This document shows, one piece after another, positions 43,946 through 62,023 of a DNA stretch of 64,000 bases. The position numbers and the translations under genes were made by a program. How positions within the stretch are numbered: position 1 is the stretch's first letter; each line of letters starts with the position of its first letter. The notes below the pieces were generated by a model. That model had not been told where the DNA came from, did no database searches, and worked only from the letters and a program-made list of their open reading frames with translations. Source of the stretch: Somniosus microcephalus (taxonomy: Eukaryota); the NCBI GenBank assembly GCA_052327205.1, contig CM126213.1, positions 68,014,001 to 68,078,000 on the forward strand. The letters run 5' to 3'.

Positions 43946-44824
43946 CAATGTCACAAAGTTAGATGAAATGGTACATTAATGTTATTATCTCATCATTATA
44001 CTCTAAACAGAAATGTCTAGTTAGTACATTCTGTAACCTTGTTTAGCACTGATTTCTGATTCTATTGCCTAGTTAATGATAGTCCCGTTTTTGTGACTAT
44101 ATTTTAAAAATCTCAACAATTATGTGACAGATGCAGACAATAAGGTGGTAGATTAGATGTGAGCAGATTTATATTCTCTGACACCTTTATGTAACTAGAG
44201 CTACTGTAGCAAACTATATACAGCAGGCTTCTGGCTTAAAAAAGTAAACCAGACCAGGACTTGCTTTGTAGACAAAAACTGGGTCGCACCAGTGTTCTTT
44301 TAATTGATTGCGAGTTATTTTTGAGTGTTCTCAAAAAAATTTGAGGTTGAACAATTATACAGAATAAATATTTAGTTAAGCTTTAGAAATTTGTAGTACA
44401 GCTTCTGCTGATGCAGTGATGATATTCACTTTGATGCTGCCATGTCCCAACACTGTATGATGAACATGGCGTCTATGGGTATTGCTTTATCTTACTCTTT
44501 CACATATCACAGTGCTGCATCAAGTGAAGCGACTCAATTGATGTGGAACATTTCTTACTTGGGATCTTCTTTCACAGAGTCTTTTGCAACACTCTTAGTG
44601 TTACCCTGAACTGCAACCATAATATCACAGTCCAGAAGTGTTGGTGTTCTAGGCCATGCTCAAATGCAAGCCACTGGCTGATGTTGCCATTTTCCACCTT
44701 GCTGTACCTTGGCAGCAGTTTGAATAACTGGACGAAGGTGGTTGTGCAGTCCATTCACTTCTGTCTTGCTACATTTGTGCTAGGGCCCAACATTGCTTGT
44801 TAACATGAAATATGGTTTTATCTT

Positions 44825-47800
44825 TGTTGTGTATGTACCTTTAAGGGAATAACTGGTCTCAGACTGCAGTACCGGCAGTGACCACCCCTGTATAAAAGGC
44901 CCTAGCAGGCTTCTGTAGTTTCAGTTTCCAGGTTGTCTCCATTCAGTAAAGACTTGTTATGATCAACTCCTGCAGTCCGTGTTTCAATTATACACGGACA
45001 TAATACTGGCGACGAGGAAGAAACGAACTTACCTGCAACTCGGCAGCAGCTCAGACGACGTTATTGAAGGTCGGAGCCAGAAGAAAGAAAAAAAAATAAT
45101 CCAAAGAAACTCGAGAAACGGGCGTCGACCATGGGCAACCGCCCTCCAAATCATCGAATTGAAAAATTGCAGGAGAGACAGTCGAGAGCCAGGCTTGGTT
45201 CTCCAGTCTGTGGTTTCCCAGCTAATCGGGCTGGTGGCAGGTAGTGCACTGATCCTTCCTGGGCTGTGGCAGGCTAGAGCTCGATCGGGTGGCTCTGCAA
45301 TGGGGCCGGGCAGCGAGTCGGGAAGCAAAGAGAGAGAGAGAGAGGGTGGAGCACACAGGGCACGGCTGGTGCTTCGAAGCCGGGCAGCGTTCGGACTTAA
45401 GAAGAGGGAGGGAAGTGTCCCAGAGGGTCCGCTCCATGACGGGAACGGTTCTTCAATTAACGGAGCAAATATTGAAGCGCGATAGAAAAATAAAAATACC
45501 GCGGAGAGCGGCGTTGGCAGCAGCGATCGGGGAGGCGCGAAGACCATAGGGCGTCGCCATTACAGGATAGTAAAATAAATATAATCGCCAGCAACAGCGT
45601 TGGCAGCAGCGGCAGCGGCGGGAAAGCGCGGGAGGCGCCATCTTAACTCGGCGGGGAAGAAGGAAAAGCGCGGGAGGCGCCATCTTAGATTTTCAAGATG
45701 CCAAAGACTGGCGATATCACTGCCTTCGATAATGCAATAGAAGACTGGACCACGTATGTGGAAAGAGTCGAGGTATATTGCGAGGCAAACGAAATAGCCG
45801 ATGAGAAAAAGGCATCGGTATTGCTAAATTTAATGGGCGCAAGAACGTACGGCCTATTGCGGGACCTGATTACTCCAGCCAAACCGAAGGCGAAGAATTT
45901 TAACGAAATTGTTGCTATCCTACAGGAACACCTAAATCCTACACCGCTGCTGATAGCAAAAAGATTTAAATTCCACAGGAGAAATCAGCATAAAAATGAG
46001 AGCAATGCTGATTACCTTACGGAACTACGCAAGCTATCAAAGCACTGCCAGTTCGGAGCAGGACTGGCAGATACCTTACGGGACAAATTTGTCTGTGGAC
46101 TCCTGAGTGAAGGAACCCAGAAGAGGTTACTCTCAGAGAAAGAGCTGACGCTAGATAAGGCTTTCAGCGTGGCAGTATCGTACGAAGCAGCAGCAAGGGG
46201 AGCTGTGGAAATACAACAAAAGCCACAGGAATACGGCACCCACGAAATGACACGGGGATTTGCAAAATGTTATTGCTGCGGCAGAACAAACCATGACCAG
46301 AAGGACTGCTGGTCCAAGGACAAAATATGCAGGCAATGCGGAAAGATGGGACACATTGCACGAGTTTGCAGGTCTGGGAAGAAGACCAACGACAACAAAA
46401 AGGCTACTAAGGAACCGTACAGGAAAGTACAAAAGATGACGGACAGTAGTTCCGAAGACCAGATGAGCGATAGTGAATCCGGGAACAAGAGACTAAGCTG
46501 TCTCAAACTTCACAACGTAATCGCAAAAGAGGATCACCGAACCATTTGGGTCACCCTCACGATAGCAGGGTCCCAAGTCAAAATGGAATTGGATACAGGA
46601 TCAGCTCTAACCGTCATGAATCGACGCGACTACGAGCGGCTATTCTCACACATACCCTTGAGAGAGACATCCATTGTCTTGAGGACGTATACGGGGCAAA
46701 AAGTATACCCCAGAGGAAAAATAAGGGTGCCTGTCGAATACAACGGCAAGAAAATAAGGAAATTGTATCTCTACATTCTGCAAGATGGTGGACCACCGTT
46801 ATTGGGACGTGAATGGATCAGAAAGATAAGTTTAGACTGGCACTCCATTCAGGCACTGACGGTGGCTGGTAAAAAGGATGACGACGTCACTCCTGGACGA
46901 TTGTCAACAATCTTAGCTGACGCCAAAGAGGTATTTCAACAAGAACTGGGCACTCTTAAAGGCGTAACCTCCTTGATAAAAATAGAGGAGAATGCAATTC
47001 CCAAGTTTTTCAAAGCAAGACCGGTACCATATGCAATTCGCCCAGCCGTCGAGGCAGAGCTGGAGAATCTGGAGAATGCAGGCGTGTTATCTAAGGTAGA
47101 CTGGAGCGAGTGGGCGACACCCATCGTTCCTGTCATGAAGAAAACGTTAAACAAGAAGTCTGAGGAGCCAAGGAAGGTTCGCATCTGTGGGGACTTCAAG
47201 GTGCCAGTGAACCCAATCCTTCACACAGTACAATATCCTCTTCCAAGGATAGAAGACATCTTCGCCTCACTATCTGGAGGGAAGCGTTTTACAAAAATTG
47301 ACCTAGCACAAGCATATTTGCAGATGGAGGTTGAAGAATCGTCTAGGAAGTATCTCACGATAAACACTCACAAAGGTCTTTACCAGTATAATCGACTGGT
47401 ATTCGGAGTAGCATCAGCTCCGGCGATATGGCAAAGAGCGATGGAACAAGTCCTGCAAGGGATTCCGGGGACTCAGTGTTACTTGGACGACATCCTAGTG
47501 ACAGGTGAAGATGACAGTGAACACCTTGCCAACCTAGAGCAGGTGCTCACTAGACTACGTGAACATGGGCTATGAGCCAATCACCCTAAGTGCGAGTTTT
47601 TTAAGAAACAAATATCGTATTGTGGCCACATGATTGATGAAGAGGGGTTGCATAAGTCCCCTGACAAAATTGAAGCGGTAGTTAAGGCTCCAGCACCTGA
47701 AAATGTGTCGCAACTGAGGTCATTCCTCGGATTGGTGAATTACTACCATAAGTTTTTGCTGAATTTGTCCACAATTCTGCATCCACTGAACGCCCTACTA

Positions 47801-49940
47801 TGAACGGGAGTAGCTTGGAAATGGAGCGATGAATGTAAGCGGGCCTTTCAGAAGAGTAAAGACCTAATCACTTCAAGAGAAGTATTGGCTCACTACAACC
47901 CATCACTATCGATAAGACTGGCGTGTGATGCGTCTCCCTACGGCATTGGGGCAGTACTGTCACATAAATTCCTTGATGGTTCAGAGAGGCCGATAGCTTT
48001 TGCGTCACGCTCGTTAACTTCAGCCGAGCGTAACTACGCCCAGATTGACAGAGAGGCCCTCAGCCTGGTGTGGGGGGTGAAGAAGTTCAATCACTACCTG
48101 CACGGTCAGAAATTTACTCTACTAACTGATCATCAACCTCTCGTCTCCATTTTCAACCCTCAGAAGGGCGTACCGATAATGACGGCACAACGGCTACAGA
48201 GGTGGTCCCTTTTCCTAGGGGCTCACCAATATGACATCGAGTACAAAGGAACTAAACAGCATGGGAATGCTGATGGATTGTCGCGCCTACCGTTGCCGAC
48301 GGTGGAAGAAGAACTGCCAGTGGATCCAATGGAGTTATTCCACTCGACTATAGTCGAATGTCTCCCTGTGACGAATGCAAACATAGAAAAGGAAACACGA
48401 AATGACCCGACACTCTCCTGGGTCTATGATTTAACAGTGAAGGGATGGCCAGCACATGGCGAACCACTGTTGCCAGCATTCTTGCCAAGAGAACAGCTGT
48501 CAGTGTGCAGAGGAACCTTGATGTGTGGATCCAGAGTAGTAATTTCACCCAAATTGAAGGATAGAGTGCTCAATGAGTTTCATGAGGGTCATCTGGGAGG
48601 GGTAAAAATGAAGAACTTAGCCAGAGCGTTTGTGTGGTGGCCGGGAATCGATAGAGAAATCGAAGAGATGACCAAGAGCTGTACAGGATGCCAGAAGGTC
48701 CAAAACACCCCACCACAAGCCCCTCTACATCCATGGGAGTGGCCCTCATCTCCATGGCAAAGGGTACTCATTGATTTTGCTGGTCCCTTTATGGACTCGA
48801 TGTTTTTAATTGCGGTGGATGCACATTCAAAGTGGCCAGAGGTAATAAAAATGTCCTCAACCACCACAGAAAAAACTATCACAGTCTTACGAACCATATT
48901 CGCCAGGAATGGGCTGCCTGAACAGAATTGCTCTGACAATGGACCACAGTTTGTGTCTGAAGAGTTCCGGAGGTTCTTAAAGAACAATGGTGTTAAGCAT
49001 TACACATCCGCCCCATATCATCCAGCCATGAATGGATTGGCCGAGAGGTTTGTTCAAACATTCAAGAAGGCTATTCATGCAATGTGTAATGAAGATATAC
49101 CCCTACAACACAAGGTGGATAACTTCTTGTTTGCCTACCGGAATGCGACACATGCGGTTACCAACCAAACTCCAGCCATGATGTTCTTCAATCGAAGACT
49201 ACGATGCCGCTTGGATTTGGTTAAGCCAAACGTCAGAAGAGATGTGGAGAACAGGCAGTTTCAGAATATGAATGAAAGGCCGACCAGGAGTTTTAAGATA
49301 GATCAACCAGTTTTGGCCCGGGACTACCGCACAGAGAAATGGCAGCCAGGAACGATCTGCACACGGCAAGGACCCCTAATGTATACCGTGGACGTTGGAG
49401 AGAGCATTGTAAGACGCCATGCTGACCAGATTCTAGAGTCACTGGAAAACGTCAACTCCACACCACGATCTGATACACCTGGCGATGAAACCGAAGTACC
49501 AATTGCATCTACCGCAGAATCGGTGATATTGGAAGCAGACGAACCAAACAACGACATTGATCCCGACTCAACCTTGCCAGAAGAACCTGATATCCCAAAG
49601 AGGCGTTATCCAGACAGAATCAGGAAGCCTCCTCAAAGACTGAACTTATAATTGCTTAACTTCAACCAATGTATCTAGCAACCGTAATTGTAATTGTAAT
49701 TAGTTATTATTTAGTTGCTAAATGAATGTTATGTACTGTTTATCTAAAAGTGGAGGAATTGTTGTGTATGTACCTTTAAGGGAATAACTGGTCTCAGACT
49801 GCAGTACCGGCAGTGACCACCCCTGTATAAAAGGCCCTAGCAGGCTTCTGTAGTTTCAGTTTCCAGGTTGTCTCCATTCAGTAAAGACTTGTTATGATCA
49901 ACCCCTGCAGTCCGTGTCTCAATTATACACGGACATAATA
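44825..49940 (+). mobile_element. Ty3/Gypsy LTR retrotransposon, copy 2 (full length, two nonsense codons)
   Basis: 181-bp LTRs 44825-45005 and 49760-49940 (2 mismatches); TSD ATCTT; PBS TGGCGACGAGGA; PPT AAAAGTGGAGGAAT. Confidence 0.95.
45698..49651 (+). pseudogene. Single-frame gag-pol polyprotein (Gag, PR, RT, RNase H, IN) with in-frame TGA at 47573 and 47801
   Basis: CCHC x2, LDTGS, YLDD, CDASPYG, HHCC and DDE motifs; ORFs 45698-47575 and 47885-49651 share a frame. Confidence 0.92.
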
Positions 49941-50360: not shown

Positions 50361-51129
50361 TGGGACATGTTGAGGATGTGCCCAGCAGCAGGGCAATGCA
50401 GAAGCCAGAGATAAGAAAACTGTCTCTCAACACAGCACAGCGACCTTATGCTGAGCCAGAAAGAAGTTGGGCCCAGGCAGCCACTCCAGCCTTGGATGTG
50501 CTGGAATCAGTTGCAGGCCAACCCTTGAGCCTGCTCAAGGAGGTACAGAGCCACTGCATCGCAAGAGCCGCCTTTTGGGATTGAGCAGCTAGCCATCTAA
50601 CTTGTTCCTCCCTAAGATCCAAAAGGACCAATGGATTAAATACTACTCAATGCAAACCATACACAACCATCAAGGGGAAGCACCAGCCAGAAAAAGACAC
50701 TAATTTCGAACACTCTGAACACCAGTTAGATGAATAAATTAGTTAAAGTCCATTTGCACTCTGTGCAGAATTTATTTATATTGAAGAAGATTTCTATAGC
50801 AGGAAATTAATGGGTTGGAACTTGGCAGGCTGCTACATCAAGCAGAGGATAATGGTGGGTATGGTGTTTGGGAAGCCAGTTCATTTGGAACATATATTGC
50901 AAACTTCTTGTACTACGATGACGTTGAAATTTATTTGAATTGTTGTCTATTAAATATTACAAGAATGCAAAATAGGGTCAATGACAGGTCAAAGTGGCAT
51001 TTGGTGGTTTCCGCCCCAACCTGCAGGTCTCAGGCTGCAGTGTAAATTCTGCAGTTTGAGCCCCAAAGGGCAAACTTTAACAGGGCCAAGAAGGAAATAA
51101 AATTAAACTTAAAAAAATAATTTCCCACT

Positions 51130-54100
51130 TGTTGTGTATGTAACCGTTTACCTTTAAGGGAACTATAGAATGTGACCGTTCGCCTTTAAGAGCACTACTT
51201 TAGGGTGGCACTATTTATTGGCTCATGTATACTGTAATACCGATAGTGACCACACCAGTATATAAGGGTTGTGATACGTTAACTAGATCAGAAATCGCCC
51301 AGACCACTGAATAGTAAAGACCTGTTTTGTTTGTACTTCTAAAGTCTCTAAAGTTATTTACTGCACAACCTACAGACTTTACAGTGGCGACGAGTCCGAT
51401 CGTACCCTGCGGCAAGACTAACCAGTAGCAGAGAGCTTCAAAAAGAAAACACGAGGCTCCGTCTACTAAAAGTATAGTACTTACTGGAAGCTGGAAGATT
51501 AACAGCAAAGCTGCGGCAGCAACAGGCACAGATTACCCTGCTACCACATCTTGAGCGAGCCAATCAGCCTAAAACAAGGCGGCCGAAGAGACTGTGAGTA
51601 GTTAAAACAAATAAATTTAAAAAAAAACGGGGTAGAAGTATTTGGAGGAGAAGGGCAAAGCATTCGGGTCCAACGGCGTCGGGTGACAGCCGGACCGCGG
51701 GCAATGTGAGAAGCCGTGCAGCAACCGCTGCCACGAAGCGCTGAGCCTGCGAGTAGGCGCGGGAGTGTCAGAGCCAGAGCCGAGCGGGAGGCGTTGCAAG
51801 CCAGCGATCGCATCTCCAGATAAGGGCGAGAGCCGCGAGAGCGATCGGATCTACAGATAAGGGCCGGCAGCCGCTTCGCGATCCAGCGATCGCATTATAG
51901 ATAAGGGCCGCACTCGGGCTGACAGACGGCGTCGGGGGACCGGGTGAAGACCGCCAAGCGCGGGAAAACCGCCATTGAAGTGGGCGGGGAGAGCGAGAAG
52001 CGCGGGAAAGCCGCCATTTTTCGGGGAAAACCGCTGAAGAAGAAGGAAGAAGCGGGAAACCGCCATCTTGGAAATTATTAAGAATTTCAGAAAAGTAATA
52101 AGATTTTTCAGAAAGGCTGGTGTGTTCTCAAGAAGAGAGAAGAAAATTAATAATAAGTAAAGTAATACTTGTACTGTTCTCAAAAAGAGAAGAAGATGCC
52201 TAAGCGAGGAAATATTAATGACTTTAATGCAGAAATAGAAGACTGGGCCACGTATGTGGAACGCATAGAAATATATTGCGTAGCCAACGAAATTGAGGAT
52301 GACAACAAGGCAATAACTTTGTTAAATTCGATGGGAGCAAAAACATACGGGCTTTTGAAACATCTAATAGCACCAGTTAAACCAGTGGACCAGACCTTCG
52401 AAGAGATCGTAACAGTGTTGAAGGATCACTTGAACCCCACACCGTTGATGCTGGCTGAACGATTTAAATTTTACGCCAGAACCCAGAGGCAAGATGAAAG
52501 CAATGCGGAATACTTAGTCGAACTGCGTAAGCTAGCGAAATACTGCCAGTTTGGAGGGAATTTGACAGAGGCGCTGCGGGACAAGTTCGTATGCGGCTTG
52601 GCCAAAGAAGGAACGCAGAAGCGACTTCTGGAAGAAAACGACCTCACACTGGACAGGGCTGTCCTCATAGCTTCATCGCACGAAGCCGCAGCGAAAGGGA
52701 CGGCGGAAATGCAGCTAAAGGCGGCGGCACTCGGGGTGGACCAAATTACAGCAAGCACTCCCAAATGCTACCGTTGTGGAAAGACAACGCACGACCAGAA
52801 TCAGTGCTGGTTTAAGAACCAAGAGTGCAGGAAATGTGGCAAACTGGGTCACATCGCGAAGGTATGCAGGTCCGGAAAGAAGACCAACAAGCAAAGGAAG
52901 CCACCACCACAAGGAAAGTACAACAAGGTGCATCAGGTGGCTGAAAAGAGTTCAGACGAACAAAATTCAGACTCAGACCCAAACAGCCAGGAGCTGGATA
53001 GTCTGAGAATCCACCATGTGGGTAAAGTAACTGATCTACAGTTGATCTGGGTCACACTAAAAATAGCGGGAGTCCAAGTACGAATGGAGATGGACACGGG
53101 ATCAGCTGTATCCGTCATCAACCAAAAGGACTATCACCGGCTATTCTCTCACATACCCTTAAGAAATACCAAATTCATATTACAGACATACACGGGGCAT
53201 CATGTATACCCCCTGGGAAAAATACGAGTCAAGGTGAGAGATAGGGGTAAAGAACACCCACGAATGTATCTGTACGTACTACCTGAGGGAGGACCACCAC
53301 TTCTGGGACGGGAGTGGATCAAGAAAATAGACATGGGATGGCACTACCGACAAGCAATGACGAGTGAGGACTCGGTGCAGACAAGCAGCTCAGACTCCGA
53401 GCCGGAAGACGATAAGTCCAGCTTATGTATGAAAAACAAGATTAACATGAACTCACGGACTAAGGTTGGGAAATCGATGGCGTGCATAAAGACAGAGAAT
53501 TCTGAGTCTGTTCAAGCTACAGACATATGCATTACGGAGGAACACCGGGCTAGAACTCAACGTTATGTCAAAGTACAACGACAATTAGAACAGTTGAGTG
53601 CCCATCTCCTACAAGAGATGGAAAAGGTGAAAAAGTTCTGGGACACCGAATGGGAGTCCCTGGAAAGACAACAGAGACAGCTCGCTCAAGCAGAGAGCGA
53701 CCATAGAGCCATCGTGGCCAAGTACCAATCACATCTCCCTGAGGCTGTTCAGGAACTAGAATATACACAGAACGATCCAAAGGAAGAGGAATCTTCAGGA
53801 AGTCAGGATGGTATTCCAGTTCACCTCTACGACTTGTTGCAAGCAGAGTGTAACGAGTTGAAAGAACAGTATGAACAGGCTAGGACTACAATCCTGGAAG
53901 GGGTTAACTTGGCAACTTCCGAAAAGCTCGTGTTAGTGAAAGCATATGAGCAACTAAAGGTTGAACATGAACGACTAAAGGTTGACCATAAGCAAGAATT
54001 ACAAAGTCTGCAGGAAATGTTTGATGAGCTTCAGGCCAAGGCTGACTCATCGTTAGGGATTCAATCCATAGGAAAAAAATTAGTGGTGGAAGACATACCA

Positions 54101-55543
54101 GAACAGGGAATACAGGATGTCCAAGAACTCGTTAAATTATTAAAGGAAACACAAAATAAATATGAAGCGGCAATGGCCGAGGTCCAACGACTTGAAGAAC
54201 AGATGCAACTGGAAATCTTTTCAGTGGAAGAAAAGGGAACTGTAAGAAACACAGAGACCGTAAGAATGGGCCATGAACATGAGCTTAAATCGTCAGAGGA
54301 GAAGGGTTTGGAGCTCTCAAAAGTTATTGAAATAGCCGAGGTTGCAACACAGACTGAGAAGATGGCAGCAGAGCAACCCTTAGATACCAAAAGTACGCTG
54401 ACTCATGTCAAGGTTGAACAACAGAACGCTGAAACAACTGCTCCGGTAGAGGAATTGAATAGTCCGATCAATCAATCTCCAAAGGAAGTTGAAGTATTAA
54501 AATCACAAATGAGGTCATTAGTAAACAACTTGCTGAAAGCCCAGAAAAAGTTAGAGGAAGCGGAACACGTGAAGAAGTCTCTTCAGGAAAGATGTCTGAA
54601 TTTGGAACAAAAGCTGGCTGACGTCCAGCTGGGTAGGGAGGACATAGAAGACCCTCTCGCTGGCCTAGCTCAGGACGACTCCGAATATTACTATGTCCTG
54701 TCCTGCCCAACTTGTAACTTCGACTCCCACCATACAGAAATCATGGAGGAGCACCGAAAGTCTACGGAACATCGGGAGAAGGTGGCTCTACTACGGAAAA
54801 AGGAGGAAGAGAAGGAGGAACTGCGCATGCAGCTGGCAGCTGACAGTGGAGCCCAGAGAGTCTCCAAGAAGCAGAAAAGGAAAAGTCGAAACAGAAGATG
54901 ACCCATCTGAACCATTATTACCTCTACCAGATCACACACGTGGTCCCTCCGAACGGAGCCAATTCAGTTCGGAAGTTCAAATTGTTAAACCCATGGAAGG
55001 ACTATTGAATGAGTCACTCCAGCAATGTGAACCGACTACACCACAGAGACTGAATCTATGAACTGTTTTCCACAGAGACTGAATCTGTGATCTGTTTTGA
55101 CATGAAGTTATATATGTTATTATGTTATGTTAAACATGAAGTTATATGACGTTGACTCCATCGAGAGTATATCTGTAAATTGTTATATGACGTTGACTCC
55201 ATCGAGAGTATATCTGCAAACTGTGTATATAAAATTGAAGATTGTATGTTTAACGGGATTCTGTAAGTAATAAGCTAGGAAGGGAGGAGTGTTGTGTATG
55301 TAACCGTTTACCTTTAAGGGAACTATAGAATGTGACCGTTCGCCTTTAAGAGCACTACTTTAGGGTGGCACTATTTATTGGCTCATGTATACTGTAATAC
55401 CGATAGTGACCACACCAGTATATAAGGGTTGTGATACGTTAACTAGATCAGAAATCGCCCAGACCACTGAATAGTAAAGACCTGTTTTGTTTGTACTTCT
55501 AAAGTCTCTAAAGTTATTTACTGCACAACCTACAGACTTTACA
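51130..55543 (+). mobile_element. Non-autonomous Gypsy-derived LTR element, copy 3 (no RT, RNase H or integrase)
   Basis: Identical 254-bp LTRs 51130-51383 and 55290-55543 (TG...CA); TSD CCACT; PBS TGGCGACGAG; PPT AGGAAGGGAGGAG. Confidence 0.95.
52196..54901 (+). CDS. Gag-protease fused to a long coiled coil (ANKRD24/RAI14/UACA-like segments), C2H2 zinc finger and basic tail; ~901 aa
   Basis: Uninterrupted ORF from the ATG homologous to the gag start of copies 1 and 2; CCHC x2, MDTGS, LLGREW, then E/Q/K/L-rich helical sequence, CPTC-x12-H-x5-H, SKKQKRKSRNRR. Confidence 0.85.
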   Translation: MPKRGNINDFNAEIEDWATYVERIEIYCVANEIEDDNKAITLLNSMGAKTYGLLKHLIAPVKPVDQTFEEIVTVLKDHLNPTPLMLAERFKFYARTQRQDESNAEYLVELRKLAKYCQFGGNLTEALRDKFVCGLAKEGTQKRLLEENDLTLDRAVLIASSHEAAAKGTAEMQLKAAALGVDQITASTPKCYRCGKTTHDQNQCWFKNQECRKCGKLGHIAKVCRSGKKTNKQRKPPPQGKYNKVHQVAEKSSDEQNSDSDPNSQELDSLRIHHVGKVTDLQLIWVTLKIAGVQVRMEMDTGSAVSVINQKDYHRLFSHIPLRNTKFILQTYTGHHVYPLGKIRVKVRDRGKEHPRMYLYVLPEGGPPLLGREWIKKIDMGWHYRQAMTSEDSVQTSSSDSEPEDDKSSLCMKNKINMNSRTKVGKSMACIKTENSESVQATDICITEEHRARTQRYVKVQRQLEQLSAHLLQEMEKVKKFWDTEWESLERQQRQLAQAESDHRAIVAKYQSHLPEAVQELEYTQNDPKEEESSGSQDGIPVHLYDLLQAECNELKEQYEQARTTILEGVNLATSEKLVLVKAYEQLKVEHERLKVDHKQELQSLQEMFDELQAKADSSLGIQSIGKKLVVEDIPEQGIQDVQELVKLLKETQNKYEAAMAEVQRLEEQMQLEIFSVEEKGTVRNTETVRMGHEHELKSSEEKGLELSKVIEIAEVATQTEKMAAEQPLDTKSTLTHVKVEQQNAETTAPVEELNSPINQSPKEVEVLKSQMRSLVNNLLKAQKKLEEAEHVKKSLQERCLNLEQKLADVQLGREDIEDPLAGLAQDDSEYYYVLSCPTCNFDSHHTEIMEEHRKSTEHREKVALLRKKEEEKEELRMQLAADSGAQRVSKKQKRKSRNRR

Positions 55544-58500
55544 CCACTCCTTTTGACTTTGGGTGATAGTGTAAAATGGGCACTCTCGACTCAGCCACCA
55601 TTTGGAAATGAAAATTGAAAGAACTGTATAAAGGATGGTATTGCCCGTTTTACACTATCACCCATCCACCCCCCCCCCCCACGCATTCTCGCCCCACCCC
55701 CGCGATCTCTCCCTACTGCCGCAATCTCTCCCTCCTCTCCACCTGGCTCCAAGCCCAACCCCACCACCGACCCCAAACTTCTCGATTGCCGGGGACCATC
55801 CCCAGCAGTCTCTGGCTGTTGCTTTGCAGTGCAAGCAGTCCCACCCGGCAGCTGGCCAGCCTCTCAGCTGCTGGGCTGGAAATGGAGTAAAACATTCTAA
55901 AATAGCAGGATCTCTGCCCTCCCGGTATAACAGGGCCGGGGTCTCCAAACCTGAAATAAACTCGTGAATGATTCGCATTGAGGTCCAATAATGGAGTATC
56001 AATGCCCCTTAACTTAATTTTTTAAGTTGTGTTTCAACAGAGCTATGGTGCAGTTGTTTGACTGTATAATTATTTTTAAAAATATTGTGATTATCACAAT
56101 GCCATAAAACATAGAACATTGTATGTTTATCTGGAATTTGAGCTTTGTTATCCAAGTTATCTTGGACTCTGATACTCACAGTCACCATTTGTTACAGTAC
56201 TGCCAAACACCTCTCCTGATATGAAGTTGAAAATTTTTCATAAACGTTACGTGAAGGTGAGGCAACTTCATATACTGTTTTAAATGAATTACAGTGTGTG
56301 GAGTCTTCAGTTTGGTGTCAGGCATACACATATGACCCAATGGCAACTGGAAAACACTTACATGTTCTTAATTCAAACCTAAACATCCATTATTTATATA
56401 GTACAATTATGAATCTGAGAAGCTAAAATGACAAACTGGGGGGAATTTTAACATCAAAGAGTGAGTGGGTTTGGGAGCGGGTGGATAGTAAAAAGCACTG
56501 AACTTGACAGCACATTGGGAAGCTGGCTCCAACCCCTTGACTTCCGCATTTCACTGGAGTGCATTCGGAACATGCGAGAAACCCCCTTGGGAGAGATGGG
56601 TTACCAATTGAAAGCAATTAAGAGGTCATTAAGAGGTTTTTTAACAGGGGTTTTCAACTCTCAATATGGGTCTATGGGTTTCCCGAGCTTCCTGGACTTT
56701 GCCAGTGAAACCAAGGCAAGAGCACAGCAGCAATTGAGGGGGCTGAAGAAATGACAGGCAAAAAGAGACCTCACACCTGCTTCCTTGCCGAAGTGAAACA
56801 TTTCTGCTCACAGCACTTGTATTGAGAGTTTGCTTTCAGTACTTCACAGGTGATTTCTACAACTTTGGAGGTGGATTCTATTACTTTGGAGGTGACTTTC
56901 AGTACATTGGAGGTCACTCTCACTACTTTGTTCCTTTGATCTCCACTTTAAATCTGTCATATGTCAGATCAGCATGGGTGTGCTTAAGTTGTTTCACCTA
57001 GGACCTCAGATGAGGACCAAGATGAGCACCAGCATCAACAGCAGGAGCAGCTGCTCACATTGCTGTCCGGGATGCCCAGGATGGACTCGTCATGGCAACA
57101 TTTAGTTAGGTTGCACCACTGTACCCATCTGGCAGCCACATGCTGAACACACTTGCCCCCCACCCCCCAGCAAAAAGCAATCCTGCAATCAACAAAGCAT
57201 CCCTTTCACAGACACCCATTGCCCAGATTTAAGTCTTGTCTTGCCATTCATCAGAACTGAGAAGACCAATTGGCAGGCTGCAGGCGGGTGGAAAGCGCAG
57301 GCAACTGGAAAGTGCAGGCAACTGGAAAGTGGTGTAAAAAAATCATTTTATATGTGAATCAAAACTTATACATTAACTTATTATTGTGACATGTCTAACA
57401 CACTCATGTGCATACCCTTGTGCAACTAATAATTTTTCATCTTCCTTTTCCTATAGCTCCTACAAACTGCAACCTCTGTGGCTTCAGCAGAGGTAGAGGC
57501 AGGCTGCTCACATCCCTGCTCTGACTGCTCAGATGCTCTTGGCCGACGACCTCTGGGTTTTGGAGCCCGTGAGGGCCCCGCCAAAGGCTGCTCCACATGT
57601 TCAGCTGTGCGAGTTTAAGAGAGGGCATTAGCTGGAGCATTGAGCTCCAAAATAGCAGCGCTGGCGTCAAATCAGCATTACACGTTGAGTGACGTCATGA
57701 TCTGCCTACTCTGCATACGTTCGGTGGAAGCTCACGCTGTGCGCGCTAACACCCTCACCAGGATGGCATCCGGCACAACTCATACGAGAAGTGTGTGCGC
57801 ACCCGCCAAGGACGCCACTTTGGATCCAAATGGCACTCGTAGAGCTGAAACAGCAGGCGCTAAGGAGCCGAATTTTGCGCCCATTGTAGCAACACCCCTC
57901 TCCCCGAGTGACTGTCTCTGAGCTGCTGAGTGTACAGGAGAGAATGAATGATGGGATGGATGAGTTGATGATAGTGCTGCCAGAGATACAGGGGAAATCA
58001 ATCTCTTGGTCAGGACTTGCACCCGCTGGAGGGAATAAACTATTCACTTGAGTCTGCGAGACCGGTATACTGTCTTATACAGCTAGTATGTTTGTTGTGT
58101 CTTATTTACCTTCTGAATTTCCATCCATTTTAAAATCCAATGGGTCTTATACATAGAGAAAAACTATAACTTCTATTATATTGATCTTTGACCACTGGCT
58201 TGTGCAGCGCTGGTCCCCTGCAGACGATGGTCAGATGGACAGTAAAACTGGCAGATTTTATTAGACAGTTGGCCAAGAAGACACATATTTTCCTTGATCT
58301 TAGTGCTTGTCACTGGCCTAACTGTGACCACACCACACCAGCGGCAGCGTGATCTCCATAAATTTGAAACACACGTCCCAACTTCCCCATCACATATATT
58401 TTAAACACATTAGCACATGGCTGCCTGTCGCCTGATGATGCCGTGACGTCATGGATGGCCGCGATTTTAACTCGGGCCAGGATCGGTGTGTGGTGGGAGG

Positions 58501-61066: not shown

Positions 61067-62023
61067 ATGGGAGAACAGGTGATGTGTTGCTGCTGCAATA
61101 TGTGGGAGCTGGTGGACACCATTGATGCTCACAGTGATCACATTTGCAGTAAGTGTTGGCTGCTCGAGGAATTCCGGCTCCGTGTTGAAGAGCTGGAGTC
61201 CGAGCTTCAAACACTGAGACACATCAGGGAGGGGGAGAGTTACCTGGACTCTGTGTATCACGAGGTATTCACACCAATTAGATTAATTAATTCAGATGTA
61301 GTCCGTGGCCAGGGTCAGGATGGTGTGACTAGAAGTGAGGCAGGTACGGGGATCTAGGAGGTAGTGTTGGAGGAGCCGCAGCCCTTGCTCTTGTCCAACA
61401 GGTTTGAGGCTCTTACTCCCTGTGAGGATGGGAATGGGGACTGCGAGGAGGATGAGCAACCCGGCCACAGCACCGTGGAATGGGGGGCCATTCAAGTGGG
61501 GGGAGATAAAAGAAATGTTGTAGTGGTAGGGGATAGTTTCATTAGGGGTATAGATAGAGTTCTTTGCAGCCGAGAGCGAGAGTCCCGAAGGCTGTGTTGC
61601 CTGCCCGGTGCCAGGGTTAAGGACATCTCCTCTGGGCTGGAGAGAAACTTGGAGTGGGAGGGGGAGGATCCAGTTGTCGTGGTCCATGTTGGTACCAACG
61701 ACATAGATAGGACAAGGAAGGAGGTTCTGCTGAGGGAGTTTGAGCAGCTAGGGGCCAAATTAAAAAGCAGAACCACAAGGGTAATAATCTCTGGATTACT
61801 ACCTGAGCCACGTGCAAATTTGGCTAGGGTAAATAAAATTAGAGAGTTAAATGCGTGGCTCAAAGCCTGGTGTGGGAGAAATGGGTTTTGCTTCCTGGGA
61901 CACTGGCATCAGTACTGGGACAGGAGAGAGCTGTTCCGTTGGGATGGACTTCACTTGGCCAGTGCTGGGACTAGAGTCCTGGCGAATCGAATAACTAGGG
62001 CTGTAGAGAGGGCTTTAAACTAA
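61067..62023 (+). pseudogene. CR1 ORF1 (zinc finger/leucine zipper and SGNH esterase) with in-frame TAG at 61355-61357
   Basis: CCCC...CSKC, LRVEELESELQTL, VVVGDS, LPGA, HVGTND, DGLHL. Confidence 0.9.

Follow-up and report, generated by a model that had tools for sequence, protein, structure and literature searches.

The stretch of DNA analysed here, hereafter the window, comprises 64,000 nt of the Somniosus microcephalus genome (GCA_052327205.1, contig CM126213.1, positions 68,014,001–68,078,000), and positions 51130–55543 within it are occupied by a young, non-autonomous long terminal repeat (LTR) element of the Ty3/Gypsy type, 4414 nt in length. The element has a TG...CA LTR pair, a target-site duplication (TSD), a primer-binding-site (PBS)-like motif and a polypurine tract (PPT). 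In one open reading frame (ORF) it encodes Gag, an aspartic protease (PR) and a cargo that, to judge from sequence comparison, was put together from spliced RNA of four host genes, namely STK10, the orthologue of ANKRD24, optineurin and a gene for a zinc-finger protein (Table 1). In the ANKRD24 part, and in the STK10 cargo of a sister subfamily, a splice donor is joined to an upstream splice acceptor, the arrangement of a back-spliced, circular RNA (circRNA).

Gag gives Pfam matches to PF03732 (E 0.01) and PF00098 (E 7e-4), both below the curated cut-off, and resembles the Gag of autonomous neighbours along its full length; the protease of a sister copy (L031) matches PF13650 above the cut-off. 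A Pfam search found signatures of reverse transcriptase (RT) and integrase (IN) to be absent from the ORF, and the parent lineage has the order PR-RT-RNaseH-IN. A DNA search of the 6.4-Gb genome with the interval under study gave 3091 candidates, and all 40 that were scored, the window's copy among them, were full length and 99–100% identical. Copies of the element are dispersed on many contigs, with differing flanks and each with its own short duplication. The window's form is referred to as subfamily A and its sisters as subfamilies B, C and D.

Table 1. Features of the LTR element at positions 51130–55543 of the window.
Feature	Position	Strand	Remarks
TSD, 5 bp	left 51125..51129, right 55544-55548	+	
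5' LTR	51130..51383	+	254 nt, TG...CA, identical to 3' LTR
PBS-like motif	51384..51394	+	adjoins LTR, common to sister subfamilies; putative role, from position
ORF, 901 amino acids (aa)	52196..54901	+	Gag - protease - host-derived cargo in one frame
Gag	52196..52900	+	CCHC zinc knuckle aa 210-225; by Pfam and likeness to autonomous neighbours
Aspartic protease, aa 286-376	53051..53323	+	PF13975 E 1e-4, below cut-off
STK10 pieces	53362..53682	+	three host exons, spliced, internal deletions; start of PKK coiled coil
ANKRD24, C-terminal motif	53675..53752	+	last ~10 nt of 165-nt exon and complete 66-nt exon
ANKRD24 back-splice junction	53752..53753	+	66-nt exon donor to acceptor of 1512-nt exon
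ANKRD24 large coiled-coil exon, 5' part	53753..54285	+	81% identical to host
21-nt tandem duplication	53951..53992	+	one heptad more; arose in subfamily A
Optineurin mid-region	54275..54645	+	intron-free exon joints; host gene located at G000:C17:85.87-85.91 Mb
C2H2 zinc finger and basic tail	54653..54901	+	fourth host gene; host exons matched at 54742-54839 and 54857-54901
Second STK10 piece	54893..55013	+	upstream exons, spliced, mostly non-coding; ends at founder's first-piece start
Remnant of parent's integrase C-terminal tail	55007..55070	+	87-91% match to parent copies
PPT	55275..55289	+	
3' LTR	55290..55543	+	identical to 5' LTR

Host donors of the cargo

The initial annotation had taken positions 53560–54620 for fragments of a host coiled-coil protein of the ANKRD24/RAI14/UACA family. 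In a protein homology search, cargo residues 385–901 gave 14 matches, nine of them to shark 'ankycorbin' (E 4e-42 to 4e-24, far beyond generic coiled-coil likeness) or caecilian ANKRD24 (E 3e-9 to 6e-7) and the other five to shark optineurin; the closest named proteins are from sharks. The family assignment thus holds for the ANKRD24 part, while most of the cargo derives from the three other genes, optineurin among them at about 54275–54645. Both peptides singled out at that stage are present in the ORF where they had been placed, the C-terminal motif preceding the internal segment, except that the start of the first (about 53629–53682) is STK10 and only the rest is ANKRD24. Within the same genome, the ANKRD24 pieces match one host gene, with 81% identity along 538 nt and 88% along 67 nt. 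The genome contains three paralogues of this ankyrin/coiled-coil family, and the cargo matches only the paralogue on C13 (70% over 174 aa), which scores 225–339 bits against three caecilian ANKRD24 proteins, against 70–130 bits for the other two; by this comparison, made with named ANKRD24 proteins, the donor is the ANKRD24 orthologue.

The STK10 pieces opening the cargo share 76–84% DNA identity with host STK10 exons (G000:C8:167.19–167.20 Mb) and would be the remnant of the first captured circle; PF12474 matches the PKK domain of a sister copy (E 1e-16), and shark STK10 was found in the homologue search. The optineurin piece of the window has no LC3-interacting region (LIR)-like motif and excludes the UBAN domain and the zinc-finger end. 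The zinc finger of a sister copy matches PF12171 (E 8e-8), and its host exons lie at G000:C1:4.79 Mb, in a gene with a second C2H2 finger downstream. This fourth donor is presumably DNAJC21, by likeness; no search named the gene. An assembly gap lies ~950 nt upstream of the matched exon, and the upstream exons of the gene were not found, the region being behind that gap. The nearest DnaJ exons are 2.1 Mb off, and the 30 kb beside them gave no match to the zinc-finger piece. The DnaJ-domain exons (G000:C1:2.67 Mb) and the zinc-finger exons, 2.1 Mb apart, each lie near a 500-N gap and may belong to one mis-scaffolded gene. A PF21884 search led to a different gene, without a match to the cargo.

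Host introns have been removed at the examined joints of optineurin, STK10, ANKRD24 and zinc-finger exons, and in the copies examined no captured sequence comes from outside the circle exons, STK10 being limited to five exons and ANKRD24 to three; a genome search with STK10 aa 705–977 gave 18 matches and no multicopy family. Capture of spliced RNA, which the absence of introns had first suggested, is supported by these joints rather than by the internal ANKRD24 piece, which lies within a single exon of 1512 nt. A feature search returned generic coiled-coil clusters only for the cargo and scores under 0.9 for the zinc finger; a PDB sequence search gave no match for the cargo and weak zinc-finger matches only for the finger; none of 62 candidates was scored in a homologue search with the last 90 aa; and a representative-protein search gave six matches, all ANKRD24-like or optineurin-like by sequence, and no chimera. 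A separate intronless STK10 copy was found at L111 (G000:C3:354658271–354658948, minus strand); it spans aa 753–977 and some 3' sequence over five exons, is 98–100% identical to host STK10, is preceded by a different repeat and is unrelated to the cargo element.

Back-splice junctions and sister subfamilies

In the host ANKRD24 gene the exon of 1512 nt is followed by those of 165 nt and 66 nt, whereas in the element the terminal part of the 165-nt exon and the entire 66-nt exon come first, followed directly by the initial base of the 1512-nt exon, whose start lies 11.5 kb upstream of the 66-nt exon in the host. The joint connects a donor to the acceptor two exons upstream with no letter gained or lost; all 20 loci examined in subfamily A have it, as do 24 of 25 in subfamily C. 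Among 3776 possible in-frame backward switch points with microhomology of at least 4 letters, at most six run from an exon end to an exon start. With a splice donor exactly on one side of the joint and an upstream acceptor exactly on the other, the order that had appeared shuffled is read as a back-splice; the corresponding circle would have three exons and 1743 nt, a multiple of three. At the STK10-ANKRD24 and ANKRD24-optineurin switches there is microhomology of 6–7 nt. The 21-nt duplication is the sole tandem duplication in the ORF and, as annotated, adds one heptad; its units are alike at 17 of 21 letters (Tandem Repeats Finder period 21), and it occurs in all 20 copies examined and is absent from the host exon.

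A second back-splice is found in STK10. Subfamilies A, B and C carry this gene in two parts, the downstream part opening the cargo and the upstream part closing it, and the upstream part ends where the first part began in L037, a copy that retains the start. When the upstream STK10 exon was used as query, the 40 matches that were scored, the host gene among them, all stood at 100%. Subfamily D, represented by seven aligned non-host loci, consists of Gag-protease followed by STK10 from inside its large exon through the downstream exons, then by a back-splice to the exon preceding the large one, and then by a return to the starting point. The permuted order, last-exon donor joined to first-exon acceptor, is present in all seven. 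Four of these loci contain the full lap and three an internal deletion, the same deletion that B, C and A inherited. The lap measures 1245 nt in L113 (1244 and 1242 nt in two others), which is the sum of five STK10 exons and a multiple of three. Its back-splice joint has the exact 15-nt donor and acceptor in six of eight distinct loci, is 3 nt shorter in one and was placed by alignment only in another.

Subfamily B was recognised from a genome search with the front part of optineurin, in which all 150 scored matches (among 17,926 candidates) were intronless; ten that were fetched share the Gag-protease plan, with a cargo of PKK domain, optineurin (six exons joined without introns) and C2H2 finger, in which a homologue search identified STK10 and optineurin. 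Subfamily C is 96% identical to the host ANKRD24 exon, and its 40 scored matches stand at 99–100%. Across the sisters the zinc-finger piece is embedded in what remains of the upstream STK10 exon, and optineurin takes the place of the STK10 back-splice region; both pieces are colinear and would fit a linear or a circular template alike. The back part of optineurin has 21 matches, 14 of which are not in the host gene but in long open frames elsewhere (loci L053–L056, L058 and L059); they run ~55 residues further into optineurin and are probably another subfamily. One subfamily-C copy (L041:2170–7061; G000:C13:62.867–62.872 Mb) lies antisense in the ANKRD24 intron between the 165- and 66-nt exons, within the circle's span, and carries ANKRD24 sequence; being one of 40 scored copies at 99–100%, it was dropped as a mark of the capture site.

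The switch points at the outer ends of the STK10 lap can be placed on the autonomous parent: its protease-RT linker has 12 nt in common with the motif at which STK10 starts, and its integrase tail has 6 nt. The linker pattern of the parent gave 10,802 matches, against none for a reversed control. Two autonomous lineages, with 10,802 and 978 pattern matches, are each 72–79% like the window element; a motif derived from reads led to the other autonomous lineage and not to a close helper.

Two other origins of the exon order have to be weighed. Capture of linear ANKRD24 mRNA with rearrangement during template switching, as initially proposed together with a role in targeting particles to actin, seems very improbable. 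Microhomology switches explain the other joints and are a documented route (Tan et al., 2016; PMC5131818), so that spliced RNA and template switching remain part of the account; rearrangement as the cause of the order does not, given that the joint is flanked by exact splice sites to the left and right (no more than 6 of 3776 switch points) and that there is a second, independent back-splice in the family, which on linear STK10 mRNA has only 2 letters of microhomology and belongs to an exact one-lap insert. Nothing supports the actin role: B and D have spread without ANKRD24, the ankyrin repeats were left behind and the residues show no conservation beyond chance. Trans-splicing or tandem exon duplication in a linear host RNA would carry the same donor-to-upstream-acceptor joint, and non-colinear joints can have other origins (Dong et al., 2016; PMC4897178), but this explanation is equally hard to credit, as such an event would have to be assumed for each of two genes whose exons each occur once in the host regions fetched (49.5 kb for ANKRD24, 100 kb for STK10), and the exact length of one lap follows simply from a circle.

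Reading frame, cargo divergence and RNA

The frame through the cargo has been maintained, since a comparison of A and C at a synonymous divergence (dS) of 0.36 reveals no stops where 16–32 are expected, and the indels keep the frame (eight of ten are multiples of three, the other two being consecutive with a net change of three). In the 20 best loci the ORF has 901 aa in 15, 952 aa in one and is broken or start-less in four. The residues, by contrast, drift close to neutrally and are not clearly maintained: the ratio of nonsynonymous to synonymous divergence (dN/dS) of the cargo is 0.75–0.93 at kappa 2–4 (kappa estimates 1.8–4.5), versus 0.11–0.13 for Gag-protease (0.08–0.14 over all estimates). 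Each of the four cargo types has been amplified; none includes the kinase, ankyrin or UBAN domain of its donors, and an LIR-like motif occurs in B only. All four types end in a basic tail. At 54845–54901, A, C and L034 follow the basic tail of the zinc-finger donor in the host frame and then stop, whereas the ORF of most B copies is out of that frame and continues across STK10 as far as the integrase tail; all versions end in a basic stretch.

The balance of evidence leans modestly towards selection against interruption of the Gag-protease frame until close to the 3' end, with the identity of the cargo of little matter. An open frame would most likely serve to keep the RNA stable, translated and packaged, or else to reach the basic tail; RNA stability would be favoured, since a stop after the protease would leave ~2.2 kb untranslated, compared with 0.64 kb now. 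A working cargo is a less likely alternative: a long coiled coil after the protease could dimerise the polyprotein in place of RT, or act as a scaffold, with frame and helical character selected rather than residues. Dimerisation activates retroviral protease, every captured coding piece is rich in coiled coil, the only tandem duplication adds a heptad, and a single-sequence AlphaFold model has five long helices, at a low mean predicted local distance difference test (pLDDT) of 56. However, residue changes caused by single bases are about as conservative as chance predicts (z 0.1–1.0), new prolines number 2 versus 3.3–3.5 expected, and 17 of 25 changed hydrophobic residues stay hydrophobic versus 52–56% expected (p 0.08–0.17); E/Q/K-rich codons supply purine-rich microhomologies, which alone could bias capture towards coiled-coil genes. 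The cargo dN/dS without transition correction, on the other hand, is 0.54–0.60 with intervals below 1, a further point for a working cargo, and that of the ANKRD24 piece is 0.64 (0.40–0.97) at kappa 2 (own kappa estimate 1.8); both values leave room for weak purifying selection on the cargo protein.

In the stranded run X7, 8574 reads aligned (1977 at ≥99%) and sense-strand RNA covers the ORF; in two bins at 53852–54179 the depth is 57 and 40 sense versus 4 and 3 opposite. Run X8 is less stranded. RNA reads from both runs (31 and 12) skip 315 nt of Gag in frame at 52426–52742 without splice-site ends, which is probably a deleted subfamily. In run X3, a contig crosses the ANKRD24 joint, with a single difference.

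Proposed assembly and relation to known systems

Taken together, the anatomy, joints and microhomologies make it probable that the element was assembled by repeated template switches of RT and that two of the templates were circular; with less confidence, the frame would have been kept with little regard to what the cargo encodes. The switches would take place inside the particle. In a first step, RT copying the parent RNA would have jumped at the 6-nt integrase-tail match onto a five-exon STK10 circular RNA, gone one round and jumped back at the 12-nt protease-RT linker match, so that RT-RNaseH-integrase was replaced by one in-frame lap (subfamily D). Because parent and STK10 match at both ends, one reverse transcription can account for this founder; removal of the template by RNase H would, from general RT biology, force exit after one lap. 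Spliced RNA of optineurin and of the zinc-finger gene would then have taken the place of the sequence around the back-splice joint of STK10 (B). Next, part of a three-exon ANKRD24 circle, its own back-splice joint included, would have displaced the front of optineurin (C and A), and deletions with the 21-nt duplication would have shaped the element as it stands in the window (A). That D came before B, and B before C/A, is inferred because the replacements are nested. Gag-protease dS (window 52196–53340; 0.81 between A and C, 1.27 between A and B) exceeds cargo dS (0.3–0.5); because Gag-protease is the more diverged of the two between subfamilies, this suggests that the cargo recombined onto another Gag backbone. 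Mobilisation would be in trans, by autonomous relatives.

Several points weigh against parts of this account. The host circles are deduced from their copies in the element, and linear ANKRD24 mRNA has a 4-letter microhomology at the joint, which would allow a chance switch. The LTR of subfamily A is ~75% like those of the parent copies fetched, among which no helper of A was identified. Copies were picked as best matches, which favours intact ones; the RNA runs may be from another species than this genome and their reads include other subfamilies; and the cargo protein is predicted from the ORF and RNA reads.

In the window, a related Gypsy element with 182-nt LTR matches 99% identical and the order Gag-PR-RT-RNaseH-IN lies at 44824–49940, 1.2 kb upstream of the cargo element; its pol frame is broken within RT. 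An open frame of 221 aa at 61358–62023 has a GDS-type esterase-like look and is presumably ORF1 of a long interspersed nuclear element.

Acutely transforming retroviruses carry Gag-host fusions, and like them the shark element is defective, presumably helper-dependent and has host coding sequence in frame with Gag. Unlike them it is a Ty3/Gypsy element without env and is inherited in high copy, the catalytic and targeting domains of its donors were left out, and its cargo has no clear sign of residue-level selection. Among LTR elements of animals, retroposition is known in which internal ORFs are replaced by spliced host RNA with microhomology at the switches, giving multi-gene chimeras (four genes at one mouse locus) that are transcribed in sense and re-mobilised as non-autonomous elements (Tan et al., 2016; PMC5131818). 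All of these features recur in the shark element, which differs from the cases in the main text of that paper, where the word 'circular' is not used, in its two apparently circular templates, in the survival of serial-capture intermediates as separate amplified subfamilies, and in a frame whose fusion to Gag-protease has persisted over ~0.3 of synonymous divergence. Pseudogenes derived from circRNAs, such as those of mouse circRFWD2, have exon joints at back-splice sites, many copies and LTR-enriched flanks; they are described as pseudogenes, by a mechanism called unknown (Dong et al., 2016; PMC4897178). The shark family likewise has non-colinear joints at back-splice sites in many copies, but here the putative circle is coding and belongs to a full LTR element for which the parent, the lap length and the two switch points are defined. 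Supplementary material of the two papers may contain LTR-internal structure for mouse circRFWD2 copies.

In the openly accessible full-text literature searched, no description was found of a circRNA lap in a coding LTR element or of the shark family; the literature search also gave no paper for the zinc-finger motif, and circRNA is not mentioned in passages of PMC13317346. Gene capture by LTR elements and circRNA pseudogenes are both known; their combination as found here had no precedent in the literature searched. A wider claim, that circRNAs are routinely packaged in particles and copied once round by RT as an ongoing route to in-frame coding modules, and that the cargo of a serially upgraded, translated Gag-protease-coiled-coil protein helps non-autonomous elements to assemble or to compete with their helpers, is rather doubtful.

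The family is a readable case, with a parent, donor exons, both switch points, an exact one-lap insert and then a second putative circle in the same lineage. It would show how circular RNAs can be written back into the genome, a mechanism left open in the work on circRNA-derived pseudogenes (Dong et al., 2016; PMC4897178), and it makes the copying of co-packaged circles by LTR reverse transcriptases testable. Other genomes could be searched for its signature, a set of permuted exons flanked on either side by one and the same short motif. In the shark, the element would be a record of circRNAs present in the germline or early embryo, and of exon shuffling among four genes, in frame, on a high-copy mobile element.

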